Shown here piece by piece: positions 56,812 to 64,000 of a stretch of DNA of 64,000 nucleotides. The notes under the pieces were generated by a model. The model saw only the letters and a program-made list of their open reading frames with translations, did not search any database and had not been told where the DNA came from. Where the stretch lies: contig BROI01000001.1 in the NCBI GenBank assembly GCA_027923505.1, forward strand, positions 124,001-188,000, in the 5' to 3' direction. The translations under genes and the position numbers were made by a program. This stretch comes from Mayamaea pseudoterrestris. Taxonomy: Eukaryota. The first letter of the stretch is position 1. The number at the start of each line of letters is the position of its first letter.

Positions 56812-57780
56812 TCAATTCGCCATATCGTAAAGTTTCAAGGCAAACTGCGTCAGAATAGAAAGCATGAGCATGACTGCCAGCAGCGTCGGCCCCGTGGTAT
56901 CTTCGTAAGGTCCCGGATGCCTCGTTCGAATCATCATGGCCCGTCGCTTGTACTGGTACATGCTATACAATATGAAGCAAATGGCAACGGGAAGCAAAAT
57001 GACGCCATATAGTTGCGACAGTGGATTGTTTGCCTGCGCAAAGGCCAAAATGGCAATGCTTCCACCGGCCAAAATGACGCTGAGATGCATCCATGCCAGA
57101 AAGGTTCGCTCGTTGGCAAAGAATACTGTGAAATGGTATAGATATAGCAATGTAGAGAAACATTTCGTAAGCAAGCAGTCGTCATCGCACAGGCCATCGA
57201 CTCTATCTACGGTATCGCGTCTTTCACTCCACTCCACAATCCTCCTTACCTTTTGGTTCCACTTTAATGGGAGCCTTTCGTGTCTTGACAAGTGTTCCAA
57301 TGTCTCCATATTTTCGGTCACTCGTCAAGGCGTTACTATTTCGCTTGTTGCTTCCTCCTCCAAACAGTTTGGTCCAAATGCCTGGCTGCTGCTTACTACC
57401 ACTACCATCAGTTCCATTGACGACGCGATTCGTGGGAACCTTGCGAATCGCTTGCGCCGGGCTTTTCTATGAAGCAATAGAAAGAAGAATGCAGTTAGTC
57501 AATGTGTGATTCTATCGAGCGATTCTCCGTCCTTCCGTGTTCTCTCACGCCCACGAGTCTTGATCAGAATCGACCCAGTTCCATTAAAATCACCATAGAC
57601 TTCTCAACATACCAACGGCTCCAAGACGCGCGGCGCAAACTCCTCCTCGGAGGCACCTTCCGGCAAGCCTTCCACCTCTCGCTCGTTGGTGGTGCTTGTG
57701 GCGCGGTTCAAAAAGTACCACTGCTTGCTGCCATTGTCGTTGCTCGTCGGCGATAGAAGACGACTCGACTCGTTTGGCAT
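56812..57780 (-). CDS. VTC1: VTC1-like vacuolar transporter chaperone subunit (DUF202); introns 57467-57612 and 57126-57249
   Basis: The spliced product contains PIKVEPKVFFANERTFLAW, three TM helices and GPYEDTTGP. Confidence 0.85.
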
Positions 57781-57924: not shown

Positions 57925-58169
57925 TATGAACCTGAAACCTTAATTGAACCTTGAACCTTAACTGAGATTGACCGTCCGACGGACAGACGAGACCGGTCAG
58001 ACTTTGTGTCAAAGCGCGCGCCAGCCAATCCCAACGGTCAACGAAACGCACCGGTTAACGCACCGCGACGAAGAACAAAGCATCATCCAAGCAGCTTGCT
58101 TGCGACAATCCGCATCACCTCCCAAAGAAGGAATTGCAGGCAAGAATAAGAGAGGAGAATTTACGGTTC

Positions 58170-58225
58170 ACAATCTATTAATAAAGCCTGCTTGACGACA
58201 ATCTATTAATAAAGCCTGCTTGACG
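58170..58225. repeat. Perfect 28-bp tandem duplication
   Basis: ACAATCTATTAATAAAGCCTGCTTGACG occurs twice, ending just before the ATG at 58230. Confidence 0.95.
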
Positions 58226-58229
58226 AATC

Positions 58230-60596
58230 ATGTCGGCGTTTAGTCCAGCGGCTGCAGCATCGTCTACAGCTGTCGCTGCCAATGAAACTGCGGACGTGAC
58301 ATCATCCATTGCTCCATCTCGCACTGCAGCAAAGGCGGCTGCGAATGGAACGTTACTGGAGGCTGCCTTTGTAGATCCTGCCTATACATGGCCGCCGCCA
58401 GAAGGTCAAGGCAAGAACGTTGTTGAACTGCGCGCGAGCTTGGTGGCGGCCTTGGCAGCTGGCGACAATGATGATGACGTTTCCGTCTTGACGACTGATT
58501 CACTCAAGGAGCGCATGAAGCTGCCACCCAAACCGCACGACTATTTCAAGTATACTTGGTGGAAGTGCTGCGGCGGTTCCGGTGTGGATACCATTGCCTT
58601 TCGATCCTACGAGCAGCGCAAAGCGGATGCACTCTTGGCGCGCAAGGAGTATGCAACGTTTTCCAAGCTTCGCGCCAAGCAGCATACTGGTCGTAACAAG
58701 TATACGTCTGTTCCGGAAGGTATTTTGGTTTATCGCCTCGACACCAGCAATCGTCTGCTGCAGCTCTTGTCCAGTCCGCATCCAAAGACGGATCTAGCGA
58801 CGCTCGTGACAACCATGACCATTGTCCGAGCGGCGCCGTCGAACGACTCTTCGCGACGCGGATTGACACTCACGGGTCAGGATGGCAAGTCGGTTACCTT
58901 GATTGCCTGCGAGCAGCGCACGGCCACGGCGTGGTTGGAAGCCATGAGTCTCATGGCGGCCAAGACCAAGTGGAGCGTGTTGCGAAACAAGGGTGGGGTG
59001 AGTAATACAGTAATGTGGCAGTCTCTTGCAATGATTCAATGCATGTCTCATATATTTGTATCTTCAATCAATCATTAGGCAATCAAAAGTCTTTGGCACA
59101 AGGAGAAGCTCAGTGACGATGACTTGGAGGAGATTGAAGGCTCCTATCTCAACCTTGCAAACTACAGCAACAAGCTCATTCGCACGGGTGCACTTGGTCA
59201 CAAGAAGGGCTCGAGCGGCGCCGGAAACATTTACTACTCCATGGAACGCGTCGAACACGCTAACGACGATGAGCAGGAAGCGGAGGCGTTGGAGGCGATT
59301 GCCAAGCGCCGCGCCGTCATCAAGGACAGCTGGGACTTTTATCGCATGATTTGCAGTCTTTTGCGTGACCGCAACAAGTACAATGAAGCCTTTCGTCGCG
59401 TGCAGCTTGATCCAGTCTATCCATACTTGAATTCCATGACTGGACTCAATGATCCTGGTGATGTTGGTTATGAGAATCCAGACAAGGCTGTCATGCAAAA
59501 CGACTTGGCCATTTATGCGAAAATGAGCAAGACGCAAGTGGCCAAGCATCTAGTGGCACAAGCGGAAGGAGCCATGGCAAGTCTTGTTGACATTTGCAAG
59601 GCTTTGGCGGGAAGCTTGGGCATGGAGGAGGTTGGGATTGGTCCAATCAAGGAACCAGAGGCGGCTCTTCGAAAGGCGGAGAAGAAGTATGACGGCGACT
59701 TGCTCAAGGTGACGGACTATTGTCGGGCACTGCTAGTCGTCAAGGATCTTCCCAGTCTCTTGGCGTTGCTGGAACTGGCGAGGGACTCGTTTGGTCCTCT
59801 CATTCGACGCGTCAAACTGTCCTCGCTGAAGGAAGCCCACAAGGCGAAACCGGGTGGCTATCGCGACTGTATCATCAATGTTGAACTCAAGGGCCACATT
59901 TGCGAAATTCAGGTGCACCTTTGGCCCATGTGGATTGTTTGCGGCGTTGACGGCTTTCGCCACTATCGTCACTGCGTCGAATACAAGACTGACACCTTTG
60001 ACGATGTGTACGACGCCCTCGATGGTCTGGATCGCAAGACCATGGCGGAATTGATTCTCATGGCGGAGGAGGCTGTCGCTGAAACGCCATTGAGCAACTT
60101 GGAATGGTACCATGAAAAATATATACTTGATTATTTCGCCGAGGCTGGCCTGTTTATGAAGCACGGCCTGGACGTTTGGGCCGAGTTAATCTTTCGCCAG
60201 CTCATCAAGCTCCGCATTGAAGCTCCTGATATTGGACCGGATCATCACGAGACAATTGTCCTCTACAAGTATCTGGCCACGACGCTTCGAGCCCAAAACA
60301 AGTACGAGGAGGCCAAGGAGATACAAGCTCGCGTCAAGGCTTCGGAAACGGCCAAGAGTAAGGAAAAGAAGCAAGCGGAGCAGTCCATTTTCGAGTCAAT
60401 CTTGAATGCACCGGCGGAAGCCTTTGACATGATCCTGGACCCGAATCGCAAGGATCGCGAAGATGAGCAAAAGCTTCGCAAGGATGTCAAGGCGAGCAAG
60501 AAGCGCTGGCGCATGATTCGGGCGGAACGATTTGCCTTTTTGGATGCCGGCGCGGTTGGATCCAAAACGTCGGAAGAGAAGAAGACGTCCCGATAG
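58230..60596 (+). CDS. PH-like + RelA/SpoT-like nucleotidyltransferase + TPR-like protein; intron 58998-59078
   Basis: A GTGAGT..TTAG intron joins ORFs 58230 and 59124 in frame. Motifs: GPIK...LRK..KKYDGD...TDYCR, GGYRD, CEIQVH, GPDHHET. PH-like ...LIACEQRTATAWLEAM. Confidence 0.8.
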
Positions 60597-60797: not shown

Positions 60798-61979
60798 TCA
60801 TGGGGGTACAGCCTTGGAAAATTGCGACGGTTGATAATCAAGACCCTTCATCCACGGAATCATTGAGGCATGCACCAGCTCCGGCGCCTCATCGTGTGGG
60901 CAATGTCCAACGTTTGGCAATACTTCGAGTCGAAAGTCTACATGCTCGGCAATATAATTGTGAAACAGACTGCCTGGATGCTTGCCAGCATCGACTGGCG
61001 TCCATGGATCGGCCCCGCCCCAAAGAGCAAGTATGGGACACTGAATGTTTGGCAATATTGATTCCGGCGTTGGACCTGGTGGTCCAGCAAACGTTTTGAG
61101 AAAGACTTGCTCGGCGTGCTCGTCATCCGACGGTTTCACTAAAATCTCCAGCAGCTCCTCGTCAACATTGGCGACGTTTCGATAGACTCCTTGTGTCGTC
61201 AGTATGCTCCTTACATTCTCCCTCGTCTTGAAGTCGGCAAAGAAACGACCACCTAGTTGAGGACCAAGCATTACCTTTTGCACAAAAAACAAAATGGGTT
61301 GCAAGTAGACTGGAACATCCTCGTAGCGAAAGCCCGTCATGCCGCCAGCGCAGTTGAGCAGAACAATTCCTCGAATGTACTCTGGAATGCGTTCCGTCAC
61401 GCGGAGACTGCACAAGCCGCCAATACTATTGCCAGCAATAATCCATGGCTTATTCGTGTGCATGGCTTGCATAAAGTCAACAATGAGTGACGCAAACAAG
61501 TCGATCGAGTAGGCTGCGTTAGGCGGCTTGTCGCTGGCACCAAAGCCAAGCAAGTCAATCGCGTAGACTCGATATCCTTCCGTTACCAGCGCTGGAAACT
61601 GGAAGCGAAAGTGATTCACATTGGCTCCAAACCCATGAATCAATAATATGGGAGGTCCGTCAATGGGACCTTCGACGCGATAGTTGATATTGTAGCGATG
61701 TTGATCGTCGCTGCAATCCCAAACAAATGTTTCATAGTTTCGTCGTACCCCTAACAGACCAATTAGAAAAGCATTCCAACCAGGGCTTAGTTTCGTTTCG
61801 TCGTCCTGGTCTCGACTCGGAGTCGTCGCGAATCGTTGCGACGAAGAAGGAGAAGCTTCGCTGACTCGAAAACGAGCCGTCGACGAGGGCGAAAACGCCG
61901 GCAAACGAAAGGCTGCGACGCTGAAGATCGAGCTAATCACGACCAAAATAGTCATTAGTCGACTCGATAGCGATACCAT
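60798..61979 (-). CDS. Plastid-targeted alpha/beta hydrolase (pheophytinase-like family)
   Basis: Signal peptide followed by AAF; LIHGFG, DLLGFGASDKP, GNSIG and GHCPHDE. Confidence 0.88.
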   Translation of the reverse strand: MVSLSSRLMTILVVISSIFSVAAFRLPAFSPSSTARFRVSEASPSSSQRFATTPSRDQDDETKLSPGWNAFLIGLLGVRRNYETFVWDCSDDQHRYNINYRVEGPIDGPPILLIHGFGANVNHFRFQFPALVTEGYRVYAIDLLGFGASDKPPNAAYSIDLFASLIVDFMQAMHTNKPWIIAGNSIGGLCSLRVTERIPEYIRGIVLLNCAGGMTGFRYEDVPVYLQPILFFVQKVMLGPQLGGRFFADFKTRENVRSILTTQGVYRNVANVDEELLEILVKPSDDEHAEQVFLKTFAGPPGPTPESILPNIQCPILALWGGADPWTPVDAGKHPGSLFHNYIAEHVDFRLEVLPNVGHCPHDEAPELVHASMIPWMKGLDYQPSQFSKAVPP

Positions 61980-62477
61980 GATTTAAAACGCCAGTGTTGG
62001 TTTTTAGCTGGTATAATGTGGACGTTTGCAATGTGAAGTGCATGATCTTTTTGGATGCGGCGAACAGAATTTTAGTCGTAGTACGACGTGTGTGTGTCAC
62101 AGTGGTTCAGACCAAAATGACTTTCACAATCTACTCGAGTATCAAGCAAGACCGGAATTCCTTAACATGTACACTACAAGTCATAGTCGAACACTCTGAC
62201 ACGACTGACAATGACCGACTGACCGCGCGACGGCGCGGCGACGTGTTGGATGCGAAAAAGTCCGAGACAAGTCAAGACCATCGCTGCAGCAAAGAATGAT
62301 AACAGCAAAAAAGTCTGATTGCATATACATATCGACAACTGGGCTGTATCGTACGTAAGGCCGGAGTTTGTGTGTGTCGCCGATGGACAATACATTTTAC
62401 GACTAAATGCTCTTGTCGCTCACTTGCTAGTAATTGCTAATTGAACATCTCATTGCCTTGTTACTCCTTGCAGCAGC

Positions 62478-64000
62478 ATGACGGAAACGACTCCGATGAA
62501 TGAAACCACTGGCGCTGCGGACGCAGACATGAACGCCATGCCGATTGACGATTTGCTGGAAGCCATTCGACAAAAGCGAGAAACGCTGCAGGTTTTGAAA
62601 TCGGATATGGAACATGGCGGCGGCGAGCCCATCAAGGAGCAGCAGCAGCAACCAGATTTTGAAGAGCAAACGACCCATTGTATTGCGACGGAGTCGCCGA
62701 TGGAAGACAATGCAGCTATTTCTTCATCTGACTGCAATCACACCAACGAGTCAAAAATTGTAGGGCAGGAGCAGGAGGATGACGACGATGAAGAGGAGGA
62801 GGAAGAAGTGATTGAGGAAGTTAGCGTCTGCACGGCTGATCTTGGACCAGAGGACGACCTCAGCTATCAAGAGGTTTGGGAGGAGGAAATTATTGAAGAT
62901 GACGACGAAGATGAGCCGTTTCTGTACGAGGACGTGGGGTCTGCTGCCTTGAGGCCTGTTGTAGTCGAAGGAATGGCCCTGCAGGAAGCCCAAGCTGTGG
63001 ACGCTAACGATATCACGGAGGATTTTTACGATGAGGAGGAAGTCACGGAGTCGCAAGCGGAAGATGCAATGGATCCAGTTGTCATCAAAGAGTCTATGCC
63101 GGTGCACGAGGAGCCATCAGTCAGCAAGACGAAAGAGACTCCTTCTTCTGTGCCGATTGTTACTGTCTCGGAGGCGCCTGCTCCTACGCCTCCAGTTGTT
63201 GCAGCAATTCCGGCTCCGCTCATCGCCGTCCCGACGATGGTTACAGTGACACCTCCAGCGGAAGATGTCGCGATGGCACAGCATGCTCCAATCATTGAAA
63301 AGCGAAAGGAGCGATACAACAAGCTTGGAAATCGCTTAAAGAACATTTGGAAGCCTCCCAATGCGCTTGTTTCGACCGGAGCTTTGTCTGATGAACCCAA
63401 CGCAGCGTCAGTGGACCCAGCAATTGATGATGATAACGCAGACACTGTCGCCACCGACAACGAGACGAACGAGCAACCCGAGATTGCTGCTCCATCGCAA
63501 CCTGTGCCAACGACTCCTGCCGAAACGCCGCAAAAGAAAGTACCTTCACGGCGGCAGAAATCATTTTCTAAAATGCTGGGTATTCGAGGACAACACGAAG
63601 CCAAGGAGGCCAAGGAGTCTGCTGCGGAAACGGAAGCACCAGTATCTTTGACCGACGACAATCCTCGTCCAAAGGTTGCACCGCCAAAGCGGCAAAAGTC
63701 TCTATCCAAACTCCTGGGAGGCGGGCGTCAAAAGTCACTGACTAAGCAAGACGCCATGACTGCAGTCGTTAAAAGCGACGAGAAGGTCAAGCCGGCGCCG
63801 CGAAGACAAAAGTCCTTTTCGAAAATGCTTTCAAACCTACGCCAAACATCTGATCCAGACAAGAAGAAGGTTCGAAAGCTGGTAGCCGTCCGCCAAGTTT
63901 CCAACAAGTCTGATATGGAAGCCGGCGTTATTACGGAACAGACCGTCACGACGACTGAAGAGCAAGCGACTTTACCCACCGTATCACATACCGAACGCGC
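62478..64000 (+). CDS. Long acidic low-complexity protein, truncated by the window end
   Basis: The frame from ATG 62478 (MTETTPMNE...) has no stop up to base 64000, so it is absent from the ORF track. Glu/Asp-rich, with RQKS repeats. Confidence 0.75.
   Translation, partial: MTETTPMNETTGAADADMNAMPIDDLLEAIRQKRETLQVLKSDMEHGGGEPIKEQQQQPDFEEQTTHCIATESPMEDNAAISSSDCNHTNESKIVGQEQEDDDDEEEEEEVIEEVSVCTADLGPEDDLSYQEVWEEEIIEDDDEDEPFLYEDVGSAALRPVVVEGMALQEAQAVDANDITEDFYDEEEVTESQAEDAMDPVVIKESMPVHEEPSVSKTKETPSSVPIVTVSEAPAPTPPVVAAIPAPLIAVPTMVTVTPPAEDVAMAQHAPIIEKRKERYNKLGNRLKNIWKPPNALVSTGALSDEPNAASVDPAIDDDNADTVATDNETNEQPEIAAPSQPVPTTPAETPQKKVPSRRQKSFSKMLGIRGQHEAKEAKESAAETEAPVSLTDDNPRPKVAPPKRQKSLSKLLGGGRQKSLTKQDAMTAVVKSDEKVKPAPRRQKSFSKMLSNLRQTSDPDKKKVRKLVAVRQVSNKSDMEAGVITEQTVTTTEEQATLPTVSHTER

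Follow-up and report, generated by a model that had tools for sequence, protein, structure and literature searches.

Enzymes of the RelA/SpoT homologue (RSH) type and their products (p)ppGpp and (p)ppApp are regarded as bacterial and plastid signals. A BLAST survey of RSH enzymes in Phaeodactylum tricornutum reported three genes, 11099, 7629 and 33947 (Avilan et al. 2019, PMC6881373), and the terms 'cytosol', 'TPR' and 'PH domain' occur nowhere in that paper. Outside plastids, RelA_SpoT domains have been described as effector domains of fungal NLRs (PMC4986451), and divergent, unplaced small alarmone synthetases (SAS) are listed for Aspergillus, Gibberella and Dictyostelium and, as JGI Phatr2 49781, for P. 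tricornutum (Atkinson et al. 2011, PMC3153485). For animals, where ppGpp has been reported, a review notes that there is no obvious synthetase to account for it (PMC10107265). Here we describe a gene at positions 58230 to 60596 (+ strand) of a 64,000-nt stretch of the genome of the diatom Mayamaea pseudoterrestris (GCA_027923505.1, contig BROI01000001.1, positions 124,001 to 188,000; hereafter the window). It encodes a 761-aa protein in which a predicted RSH synthetase domain is set between a pleckstrin homology (PH)-like part and tetratricopeptide repeats (TPR). The nearest characterised relative of this domain by sequence is Tas1, a (p)ppApp synthetase and not a (p)ppGpp synthetase. On balance, we predict that the protein is a regulated, non-plastid pyrophosphokinase making a pyrophosphorylated purine nucleotide.

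Two open reading frames (ORFs), 58224..59078 and 59079..60596, stand in the same plus-strand frame with a single TAG between them. Coordinates are positions in the whole window throughout; residue numbers of the catalytic and TPR regions count within the exon-2 protein (P0001) and those of the PH-like part within the exon-1 protein (P0002). An initial annotation made from the letters and an ORF list had proposed that the two ORFs are spliced together across an intron, and contigs of three of the four public runs from one study (X1 to X4) bear this out. The gene model is as follows.

58230..58997, + strand: coding part of exon 1, 256 aa (P0002), from the sequence and its alignment to the N-termini of full-length diatom proteins
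58998..59078, + strand: intron of 81 nt, in-frame, GT..AG, holding the TAG at 59076-59078, from contig joints and sequence
59079..60596, + strand: coding part of exon 2, 505 aa (P0001), with a TAG stop at 60594-60596, from the sequence and record 31 of X4, which spans 59078-60593

In X2, X3 and X4 alike, one contig jumps from 58996 to 59078 (labelled 'skips 81, GT..AG (cut +1)'), with 98 letters on the shorter side; in record 31 of X4 the match runs over 58899-58996 and resumes at 59078-60593. X1, whose longest record is 56 kb, contains the intron unskipped. The intron opens with GTGAGT at 58998 and closes with TTAG ending at 59078, and its removal joins the 256 and 505 residues into a protein of 761 aa. 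The start codon is the ATG at 58230, with an in-frame TGA upstream at 58221-58223. Both exon halves occur in the same order in full-length proteins of 710-874 aa from diatom transcriptomes and genomes, including those of Nitzschia, Pseudo-nitzschia, Seminavis, Grammatophora and Epithemia. The four runs hold two sequence versions (haplotypes or strains), for which 40 differing coding positions are listed between 58752 and 60380, two of them in one codon. Nearly all are third codon positions, and 37 are synonymous; the three non-synonymous ones give I145V and, within a loop of the PH-like part that is variable, P185A and L189Q. The gene model is confirmed by the 81-nt skip in contigs of three of the four runs, the full-length diatom proteins and the mostly synonymous variants. 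We take it as a genuine nuclear gene of a diatom that is spliced and codes for 761 aa, with the caveat that the spliced contigs are not formally labelled as RNA. A gene-prediction artefact or pseudogene was considered and rejected, since the 81-nt skip, the existence of homologues and the synonymous nature of 37 of the 40 variant positions speak against it. A search of the window found a single copy.

The region downstream of the first helices of exon 2 is the part with enzyme relatives.

59502..59996, + strand: RSH-type (Tas1-like) synthetase domain, residues 142-306, from PDB profile searches, Foldseek, VIA and conserved columns

An exhaustive phmmer search with residues 1-350 of exon 2 against 1.84 billion representatives returned 329 sequences at E<=1e-3; of these, 77 also pass a limit of 1e-10 and 42 one of 1e-30. 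Against the PDB, the single sequence ranked Tas1 first, weakly (phmmer E 0.13). With a profile of the 41-member family alignment the Tas1 match rose to E 2.7e-19, and a profile of 22 short catalytic-only members gave Tas1 at 7e-19, SaSAS at 8.6e-5, YwaC/RelP at 1.1e-3, Mycobacterium tuberculosis Rel at 2.7e-3, the Streptococcus mutans SAS at 3.4e-3 and RelSeq at 5.6e-3. The Pfam RelA_SpoT model, PF04607, found no match at E<=1 in the window protein and none in eight full-length orthologues. Among relatives it appears in 8 of the 47 scanned representatives at E<=0.01, twice above the gathering score of 27 bits (P0180, 33.6 bits; P0206, 31.3 bits), and in 8 of the 41 members of the family alignment. 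The AlphaFold2 model of exon 2, built on a 50-sequence alignment, has a mean predicted local distance difference test score (pLDDT) of 85.2 and a predicted template-modelling score of 0.78. Searched with Foldseek, it returned an RSH enzyme in every row down to rank 37, with Tas1 first (E 1.4e-5, TM 0.54 on target). In VIA, residues 142-306 of the model matched CapRel with Z 11.8 (root-mean-square deviation (rmsd) 2.5, 139 aa), Tas1 with Z 11.5 (rmsd 2.6, 134 aa, 25% identity), RelP with Z 10.9 and RelQ with Z 10.7, the lowest value among CapRel, Tas1, RelP, RelQ and Rel being 9.2. The predicted structure thus supports an RSH (RelA/SpoT) synthetase alpha/beta fold in exon 2, in agreement with the fold that the initial annotation had assigned, with comparison to RelQ, RelP and Tas1 as its check. 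As a lead only, the nearest ESM Atlas clusters (0.91-0.93) are mostly unnamed, and one of them has RelA_SpoT on 34% of its members.

All of the synthetase motifs named in the initial annotation are found, and the catalytic residues are conserved. The motifs read IKEPEAALRKAEKKYDGD, TDYCR, GGYRD and EIQVH, and the key codons, placed by conserved columns, are these.

59649-51, 59673-75, 59715-17 and 59724-26, + strand: codons of K191, K199, D213 and R216
59859-61, 59862-64 and 59904-06, + strand: codons of Y261, R262 and E276

K191, K199, D213, R216 and E276 are invariant among 41 sequences with 20-62% identity to the window protein, and in the same set conservation reaches 90% or more at P189, Y204, G206, R244, G260, Y261, R262 and N267; the 50-sequence alignment agrees on both. 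By hidden Markov model (HMM) alignment, K191 and K199 correspond to the RxKxxxK donor helix, D213 to the Mg2+ aspartate of DxxGxR, Y261-R262 to the GYRS G-loop, E276-I-Q278 to E(V/I)Q and H295-Y296 to H..Y. The motifs align to those of YwaC/RelP, M. tuberculosis Rel and the S. mutans SAS, with Y261 on the tyrosine of GYRS in YwaC and the S. mutans enzyme. In FaRel2, donor, Mg2+ and acceptor roles are given to K66/K74, D90, Y128 and E145/Q147 in PMC11782079, and the window residues correspond to these positions. Both the DxxR spacing and EIQVH in place of EVQIRT are common to Tas1 and SaSAS and absent from canonical RSH enzymes. We read this as an intact Tas1-type active site, which would make the domain a candidate active enzyme.

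Homologues at E<=1e-3 number 323, and the best 120 listed are 62-89% identical. Across 46 orthologues the commonest residue of each column has a frequency of 0.8-1.0 in the catalytic domain and its flanking helices, with peaks in a helical arm ahead of the domain, the catalytic core and the first TPR helices. This pattern indicates that the gene is under strong purifying selection across diatoms. The modules flanking the catalytic domain in exon 2 are the following.

59265..59435, + strand: conserved N-terminal helices of the enzyme module (helical arm), residues 63-119, from AlphaFold (helices 63-109 and 114-119, pLDDT 90-97)
60024..60407, + strand: kinesin-light-chain-type TPR, residues 316-443, including GPDHHET, from Pfam, profile and VIA
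60447..60557, + strand: conserved basic C-terminal helices, residues 457-493, ...KASKKRWRMIRAERFAFLD, from AlphaFold (helices 457-484 and 487-493, pLDDT 88-95)

The helical arm has a mean commonest-residue frequency of 0.91-0.97 in the 46 orthologues, and in the model helices 63-119 pack with C-terminal TPR helices, joining the TPR superhelix; alignments to kinesin light chain (KLC) and other TPR structures span residues 79-443. The KLC-type TPR noted in the initial annotation is upheld by VIA matches to KLC1 and KLC2 with Z 10.3-11.0 over residues 316-443, scores to be read with the caveat that helical repeats score high by arrangement alone. Among PDB chains, the family profile reaches KLC2 with E values of 6e-5 to 2e-4. 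In the window protein the Pfam TPR_12 score, 24.8 bits, stays below the cut-off of 30.1, and PF13424 is precomputed on three listed orthologues. The C-terminal helices (mean commonest-residue frequency 0.83-0.85) are modelled folding back onto the catalytic domain, where helix 457-484 packs at the site of the C-terminal helices of RelP and RelQ; the RelP/RelQ alignments reach residues 479-486. As a separate and speculative observation, the basic amphipathic helix ...KASKKRWRMIRAERFAFLD may be a regulatory or calmodulin-type binding helix.

Exon 1 consists of a variable N-terminus, the conserved strand GTLLEAAFVDP, an insertion bearing WWKCCGG and a PH-like core.

58353..58373, + strand: first strand of a split PH-like fold, LLEAAFV, residues 42-48, from an AlphaFold block with pLDDT 96 and VIA
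58557..58577, + strand: WWKCCGG with the cysteine pair C113/C114, from the sequence
58701..58991, + strand: PH-like core, residues 158-254, five strands and a C-terminal helix, from AlphaFold (pLDDT 84-97), Foldseek and VIA

The AlphaFold2 model of exon 1, from 51 sequences, has a pLDDT of 79.4 and strands at 42-48, 165-171, 176-179, 195-203, 211-216 and 221-226, followed by a helix at 229-254. Nearly all Foldseek matches listed for it are PH domains (best E 4.1e-3, none <=1e-3), and all 50 VIA rows listed are of the PH superfold (PH, PTB, FERM-C, RanBD and TFIIH p62), aligning 80-104 residues from starts at model residues 36-42 with Z 7.2-8.4. These matches and the strand layout lead us to a split PH-like fold, with the qualification that six of the seven strands of the superfold are called in the model and that the VIA Z values are moderate. 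Pfam PH models gave only sub-threshold scores in the window protein and eight orthologues (ZFYVE21_C 14.5 bits, PH_17 12.3-14.8 bits, PH_27 12.8 bits). L43, E44, A45, A46, F47 and V48 of the first strand (consensus GT(I/L)LEAAFVDP), the cysteines C113 and C114, and W235 on the C-terminal helix of the core are each at least 90% conserved in the 51 sequences. The initial annotation had WWKCCGG preceding a PH-like domain: the PH-like fold is indeed present in the models, but the motif lies inside the split domain, in an insertion of about 115 residues between strand 1 and the rest of the domain (residues 165-254). The insertion occupies the usual position of the beta1-beta2 loop, and after the motif, where local pLDDT is 66-76, comes a long helix, 119-155. 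Palmitoylation of C113/C114 is putative, and lipid or membrane binding is a candidate function of the modelled PH-like part. A complex prediction of this part with the enzyme module, run without alignments, scored 0.00, a value that carries no weight either way.

Neither a hydrolase domain nor a targeting signal was found, as the initial annotation had held. No HD-family domain was detected by Pfam in the window protein or eight orthologues, and the region ahead of the catalytic domain is modelled as two long helices. A hydropathy scan covering the window protein and 46 orthologues turned up nothing resembling a signal peptide or a transmembrane segment: all 19-residue windows of P0002 and the orthologues stay at or below 1.55, and the top 10-residue windows among the first 40 residues (<=1.81) fall on the conserved strand GTILEAAFV. 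The N-termini of these proteins are polar or acidic, with 5-130 residues ahead of that strand. Two distant homologues are exceptions: the N-terminus of P0138 is hydrophobic, and in P0136 one internal 19-residue window reaches 1.92. Since no signal peptide was found and diatom plastid import requires one, the protein likely does not enter the plastid, a call that rests on a hydropathy heuristic.

Taken in order, the protein would be laid out as a split PH-like domain, the helical arm, the Tas1-like synthetase, the KLC-type TPR and the basic C-terminal helix, and its central domain would act as an active Mg2+-dependent pyrophosphokinase. ATP, as the donor, would be bound by K191 and K199 on a basic helix, with Mg2+ held by D213 and E276-x-Q278 placed at the adenine/catalytic site. 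A purine nucleotide stacked against Y261, with its phosphates held by the conserved basic residues R244, K246 and R262, would then accept the beta,gamma-pyrophosphate on its 3'-OH, to give (p)ppApp or (p)ppGpp. Given that toxin relatives of the catalytic domain are very fast, its flanking modules most likely hold the enzyme in an off-state until a signal arrives; these would be the PH-like part and its CC pair, the TPR and helical arm that wrap the domain, and the C-terminal helix. More tentatively, and with considerable doubt, this could amount to a non-plastid alarmone second-messenger system in diatoms, and in brown algae with other partner domains, in which the synthetase, restrained by its PH-like, TPR and C-terminal helix modules, is activated at a membrane or through a ligand of the TPR, cytosolic (p)ppApp or (p)ppGpp then controlling purine/ATP metabolism or growth.

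Several observations weigh against this reading of the protein as a pyrophosphokinase of purine nucleotides. Residues 140-310 of exon 2, the catalytic region of the window protein, go unrecognised by Pfam, NCBIfam and PADLOC models, and the domain assignment draws on transitive and profile homology together with the predicted structure. In the donor motif, proline (P189, in G-P-I-K) stands where canonical R-x-K begins with a basic residue, and the arginine of D-x-x-R comes three residues past the aspartate instead of the five of D-x-x-G-x-R, which makes this a Tas1-like and atypical active site. Sequence does not reveal the acceptor, and CapRel, a tRNA pyrophosphokinase, ties with Tas1 in the structural comparison of the model. 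(p)ppApp has not been reported from plants or algae, according to the review PMC10107265. The runs showing the 81-nt skip carry no record of their kind (RNA or DNA), and the targeting call comes from hydropathy and not from a trained predictor. That no curated model recognises the domain and that its donor motif departs from the canon (P189 for arginine, the shifted arginine) would also suit a pseudoenzyme or scaffold, an RSH-like domain binding a nucleotide or nothing inside a PH/TPR adaptor, and TPR and PH-like modules are classic interaction domains. Against this, K191, K199, D213, E276 and Y261 show no or almost no change in sets of 41-50 sequences that reach down to about 20% identity, relatives with other fusion partners included, which is the pattern expected of an enzyme and not of a dead domain; Tas1, with the same atypical features, is moreover an active enzyme (PMC11782079).

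The structural tie points to another substrate class, which the initial annotation did not consider and which the modelled structure allows (CapRel Z 11.8, Tas1 Z 11.5): a pyrophosphokinase of tRNA or another RNA 3'-end like CapRel/FaRel2, blocking cytosolic tRNA aminoacylation as a regulated translation brake and producing no diffusible nucleotide. CapRel is the top VIA match (9erv_A Z 11.8; 7ztb_B Z 11.5), level with Tas1, and PMC11782079 describes the same core residues in tRNA-modifying toxSAS enzymes and an N-terminal tRNA-recognition region of FaRel2 that the extra helices ahead of our catalytic core recall. The sequence, however, is far closer to Tas1 (E 7e-19), no CapRel/FaRel2 chain matched at E<=1 in the PDB profile searches, and, judged from sequence, R244, K246 and R262 beside Y261 would fit the larger positive acceptor patch of alarmone synthetases (PMC11782079); we consider a tRNA target unlikely, and a pseudoenzyme less likely still. 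Acceptor choice in this fold is labile, RSH-fold enzymes having repeatedly switched among GTP/GDP, ATP/ADP/AMP and tRNA (PMC11782079, PMC12691689), and the family is a deep, uncharacterised branch, so an active pyrophosphokinase or nucleotidyltransferase could serve another nucleotide, a cofactor or a protein side chain and yield something other than a classical alarmone. The purine-stacking G-loop tyrosine (Y261) is kept, though, and nothing points to a particular other substrate, which leaves this variant improbable, below the pseudoenzyme in our ranking. A plastid-targeted RSH of the known algal kinds (RSH1/RSH4) making plastid (p)ppGpp would agree with the description of known plant and algal RSH enzymes as plastid-targeted (PMC6881373) and with the Ala/Ser-rich start of the window protein, MSAFSPAAA.... 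It conflicts with the lack of an HD domain, intact or degenerate, in Pfam scans of the window protein and eight orthologues; with the lack of a hydrophobic signal-peptide core in the window protein and 46 orthologues, whose N-termini are acidic and of variable length; with Tas1 and not Rel being the closest structural and sequence relative; and with the P. tricornutum survey, whose three listed genes are others (PMC6881373). We regard it as very improbable. A fungal-NLR-like immune receptor was ruled out by the lack of a NOD domain and by the extreme, non-diversifying conservation. A pyrophosphokinase acting on a purine nucleotide outside the plastid is thus the interpretation we retain.

The catalytic domain occurs with a range of partners. 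Among the 47 scanned representatives these are TPR_12 (8), LRR (4), eCIS_core (2), Phage_Mu_F, ddrB-ParB and ubiquitin. By HMM, the unit of helical arm, catalytic domain and TPR-like repeats is present in 34 of 148 representatives (P0123-P0270) and the PH-like module in 7 of the 148, each at least 46% identical to the query; many of the representatives counted for either are rows of the HMM source alignments. A homologue search with a family profile was dominated by TPR-only proteins, the catalytic domain being found in 7 of 119 new proteins; four of these are named Ectocarpus (brown alga) proteins, which combine it with TPR_12 repeats. A search with residues 40-300 of P0191 recovered only the query itself. 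In distant members the catalytic domain is C-terminal in large proteins with eCIS_core or MuF modules, which we read as typical of bacterial toxin-delivery proteins. Eight distant homologues (P0180, P0197, P0199, P0214, P0215, P0252, P0255 and P0260) carry two Tas1-like catalytic copies per polypeptide, some of them in proteins of 1,300-4,500 aa with eCIS_core, MuF or calpain domains.

In literature outside subscription journals we found no description of a PH-RSH-TPR protein or of a diatom Tas1-like enzyme. JGI Phatr2 49781, a possible orthologue of the window gene, is not among the three PtRSH of PMC6881373, and we found no mention of it in the literature beyond PMC3153485. The proposal of an uncharacterised eukaryotic signalling system in the initial annotation was overstated, non-plastid RelA_SpoT domains and divergent SAS being known (PMC4986451, PMC3153485). 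The gene is less unprecedented than had been supposed, RSH-like domains outside plastids having already been noted in fungi, Dictyostelium and possibly diatoms.

Its surroundings in the window give a DUF202 gene and an alpha/beta-hydrolase gene as flanking neighbours (Pfam). A perfect tandem duplication in the 5' leader ends 3 nt before the ATG, and contigs of X1 to X4 span 58100-58398 across it with no joint. These features are as follows.

56815-57324, - strand: upstream neighbour, an ORF of 170 aa encoding a DUF202 membrane domain (E 1.1e-17, Pfam), which may be a partial gene model
58170..58226, + strand: tandem duplication in the 5' leader, 28 bp, 2.0 perfect copies (ACAATCTATTAATAAAGCCTGCTTGACG), from Tandem Repeats Finder (100% matches, score 114)
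60801-61982, - strand: downstream, convergent neighbour, a 394-aa alpha/beta hydrolase (Abhydrolase_1, Pfam E 9.7e-25)
62445-63998, + strand: long ORF of at least 518 aa, open at the window end, very acidic and of low complexity, with repeated basic motifs of the type '...RRQKSFSKML...' and no Pfam match

In this gene, a domain of the RSH synthetase type has its complete catalytic set and sits in a predicted non-plastid and strongly conserved diatom protein. Standard domain models miss the catalytic domain, and RSH surveys based on BLAST or Pfam would therefore overlook it. It is a concrete candidate for alarmone-type chemistry in the eukaryotic cytosol, as judged from sequence and models, and a domain best known as an ATP-depleting bacterial toxin would here have been taken up as a conserved eukaryotic protein with regulatory modules of its own. 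A cytosolic pyrophosphorylated nucleotide or tRNA modification in diatoms, which are major marine primary producers, and its trigger are now open to test; should the second-messenger reading hold, a physiological role other than that of a toxin would be a first for an alarmone synthetase of the eukaryotic cytosol.

Among known systems, the fungal NLR effectors with RelA_SpoT domains and the divRel[S] proteins resemble the window protein in being non-plastid, eukaryotic, multidomain, RSH-like and biochemically uncharacterised, often with TPR (PMC4986451, PMC3153485). The fungal NLRs differ in placing NACHT or NB-ARC between effector and repeats and in having diverse architectures, whereas Pfam found no NACHT or NB-ARC in the window protein or eight orthologues, and its TPR directly follows the catalytic domain. 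Like the plastid enzymes RSH1, RSH2/3 and RSH4/CRSH (in P. tricornutum, PtRSH1, PtRSH4a and PtRSH4b), it is nuclear-encoded and joins a synthetase-type domain to regulatory domains, CRSH carrying an EF-hand as its added regulatory domain (PMC6881373). The plastid enzymes, however, have an HD domain, intact or degraded, a plastid presequence and (p)ppGpp as product, and the window protein has neither HD nor presequence and falls on a Tas1-like branch. With RelQ and RelP (SAS1/SAS2) and the SYNTH domain of long Rel/RelA it shares the fold (Z 9.2-10.9) and the aligned motifs K..K, D, GYR, E.Q and H.Y; their D-x-x-G-x-R, GYRSLH and EVQIRT are replaced by D-x-x-R, GGYRD...N and EIQVH, and it has no HD, TGS or ACT domains.

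The toxic and exported synthetases are closer. CapRel and FaRel2, toxSAS enzymes that are tRNA 3'-CCA pyrophosphokinases (PDB 7ztb, 9erv), have the same toxSYNTH core (Z 11.5-11.8, rmsd 2.5-3.1) and a common set of donor, Mg2+ and acceptor residues (PMC11782079), but they gave no match at E<=1 in the PDB profile searches and belong to bacterial toxin-antitoxin or anti-phage systems, and the window protein lacks their zinc-finger antitoxin domains. SaEAS/SaSAS, the exported alarmone synthetase of Streptomyces (PDB 8vx3) and a homologue of Tas1/Apk1 (PMC12691689), is the second-best PDB profile match (8.6e-5; VIA Z 8.8); it differs as a secreted, promiscuous bacterial enzyme with a signal peptide, of which the window protein has none. 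Tas1 (Apk1; PDB 6ox6), a (p)ppApp synthetase that serves Pseudomonas aeruginosa as an effector of its type VI secretion system, is the best sequence and profile match and the top Foldseek match, and both proteins have D-x-x-R and E-I-Q-V without the canonical 'RT'. Tas1, however, is a toxin domain at the C-terminus of an effector that bacteria secrete and that an immunity protein neutralises (PMC11782079), and no such toxin context was seen in the window gene in terms of a delivery domain (Pfam) or a signal peptide (hydropathy). Compared with Tas1, the window gene is eukaryotic, intron-containing and strongly conserved, and it adds PH-like and TPR modules.

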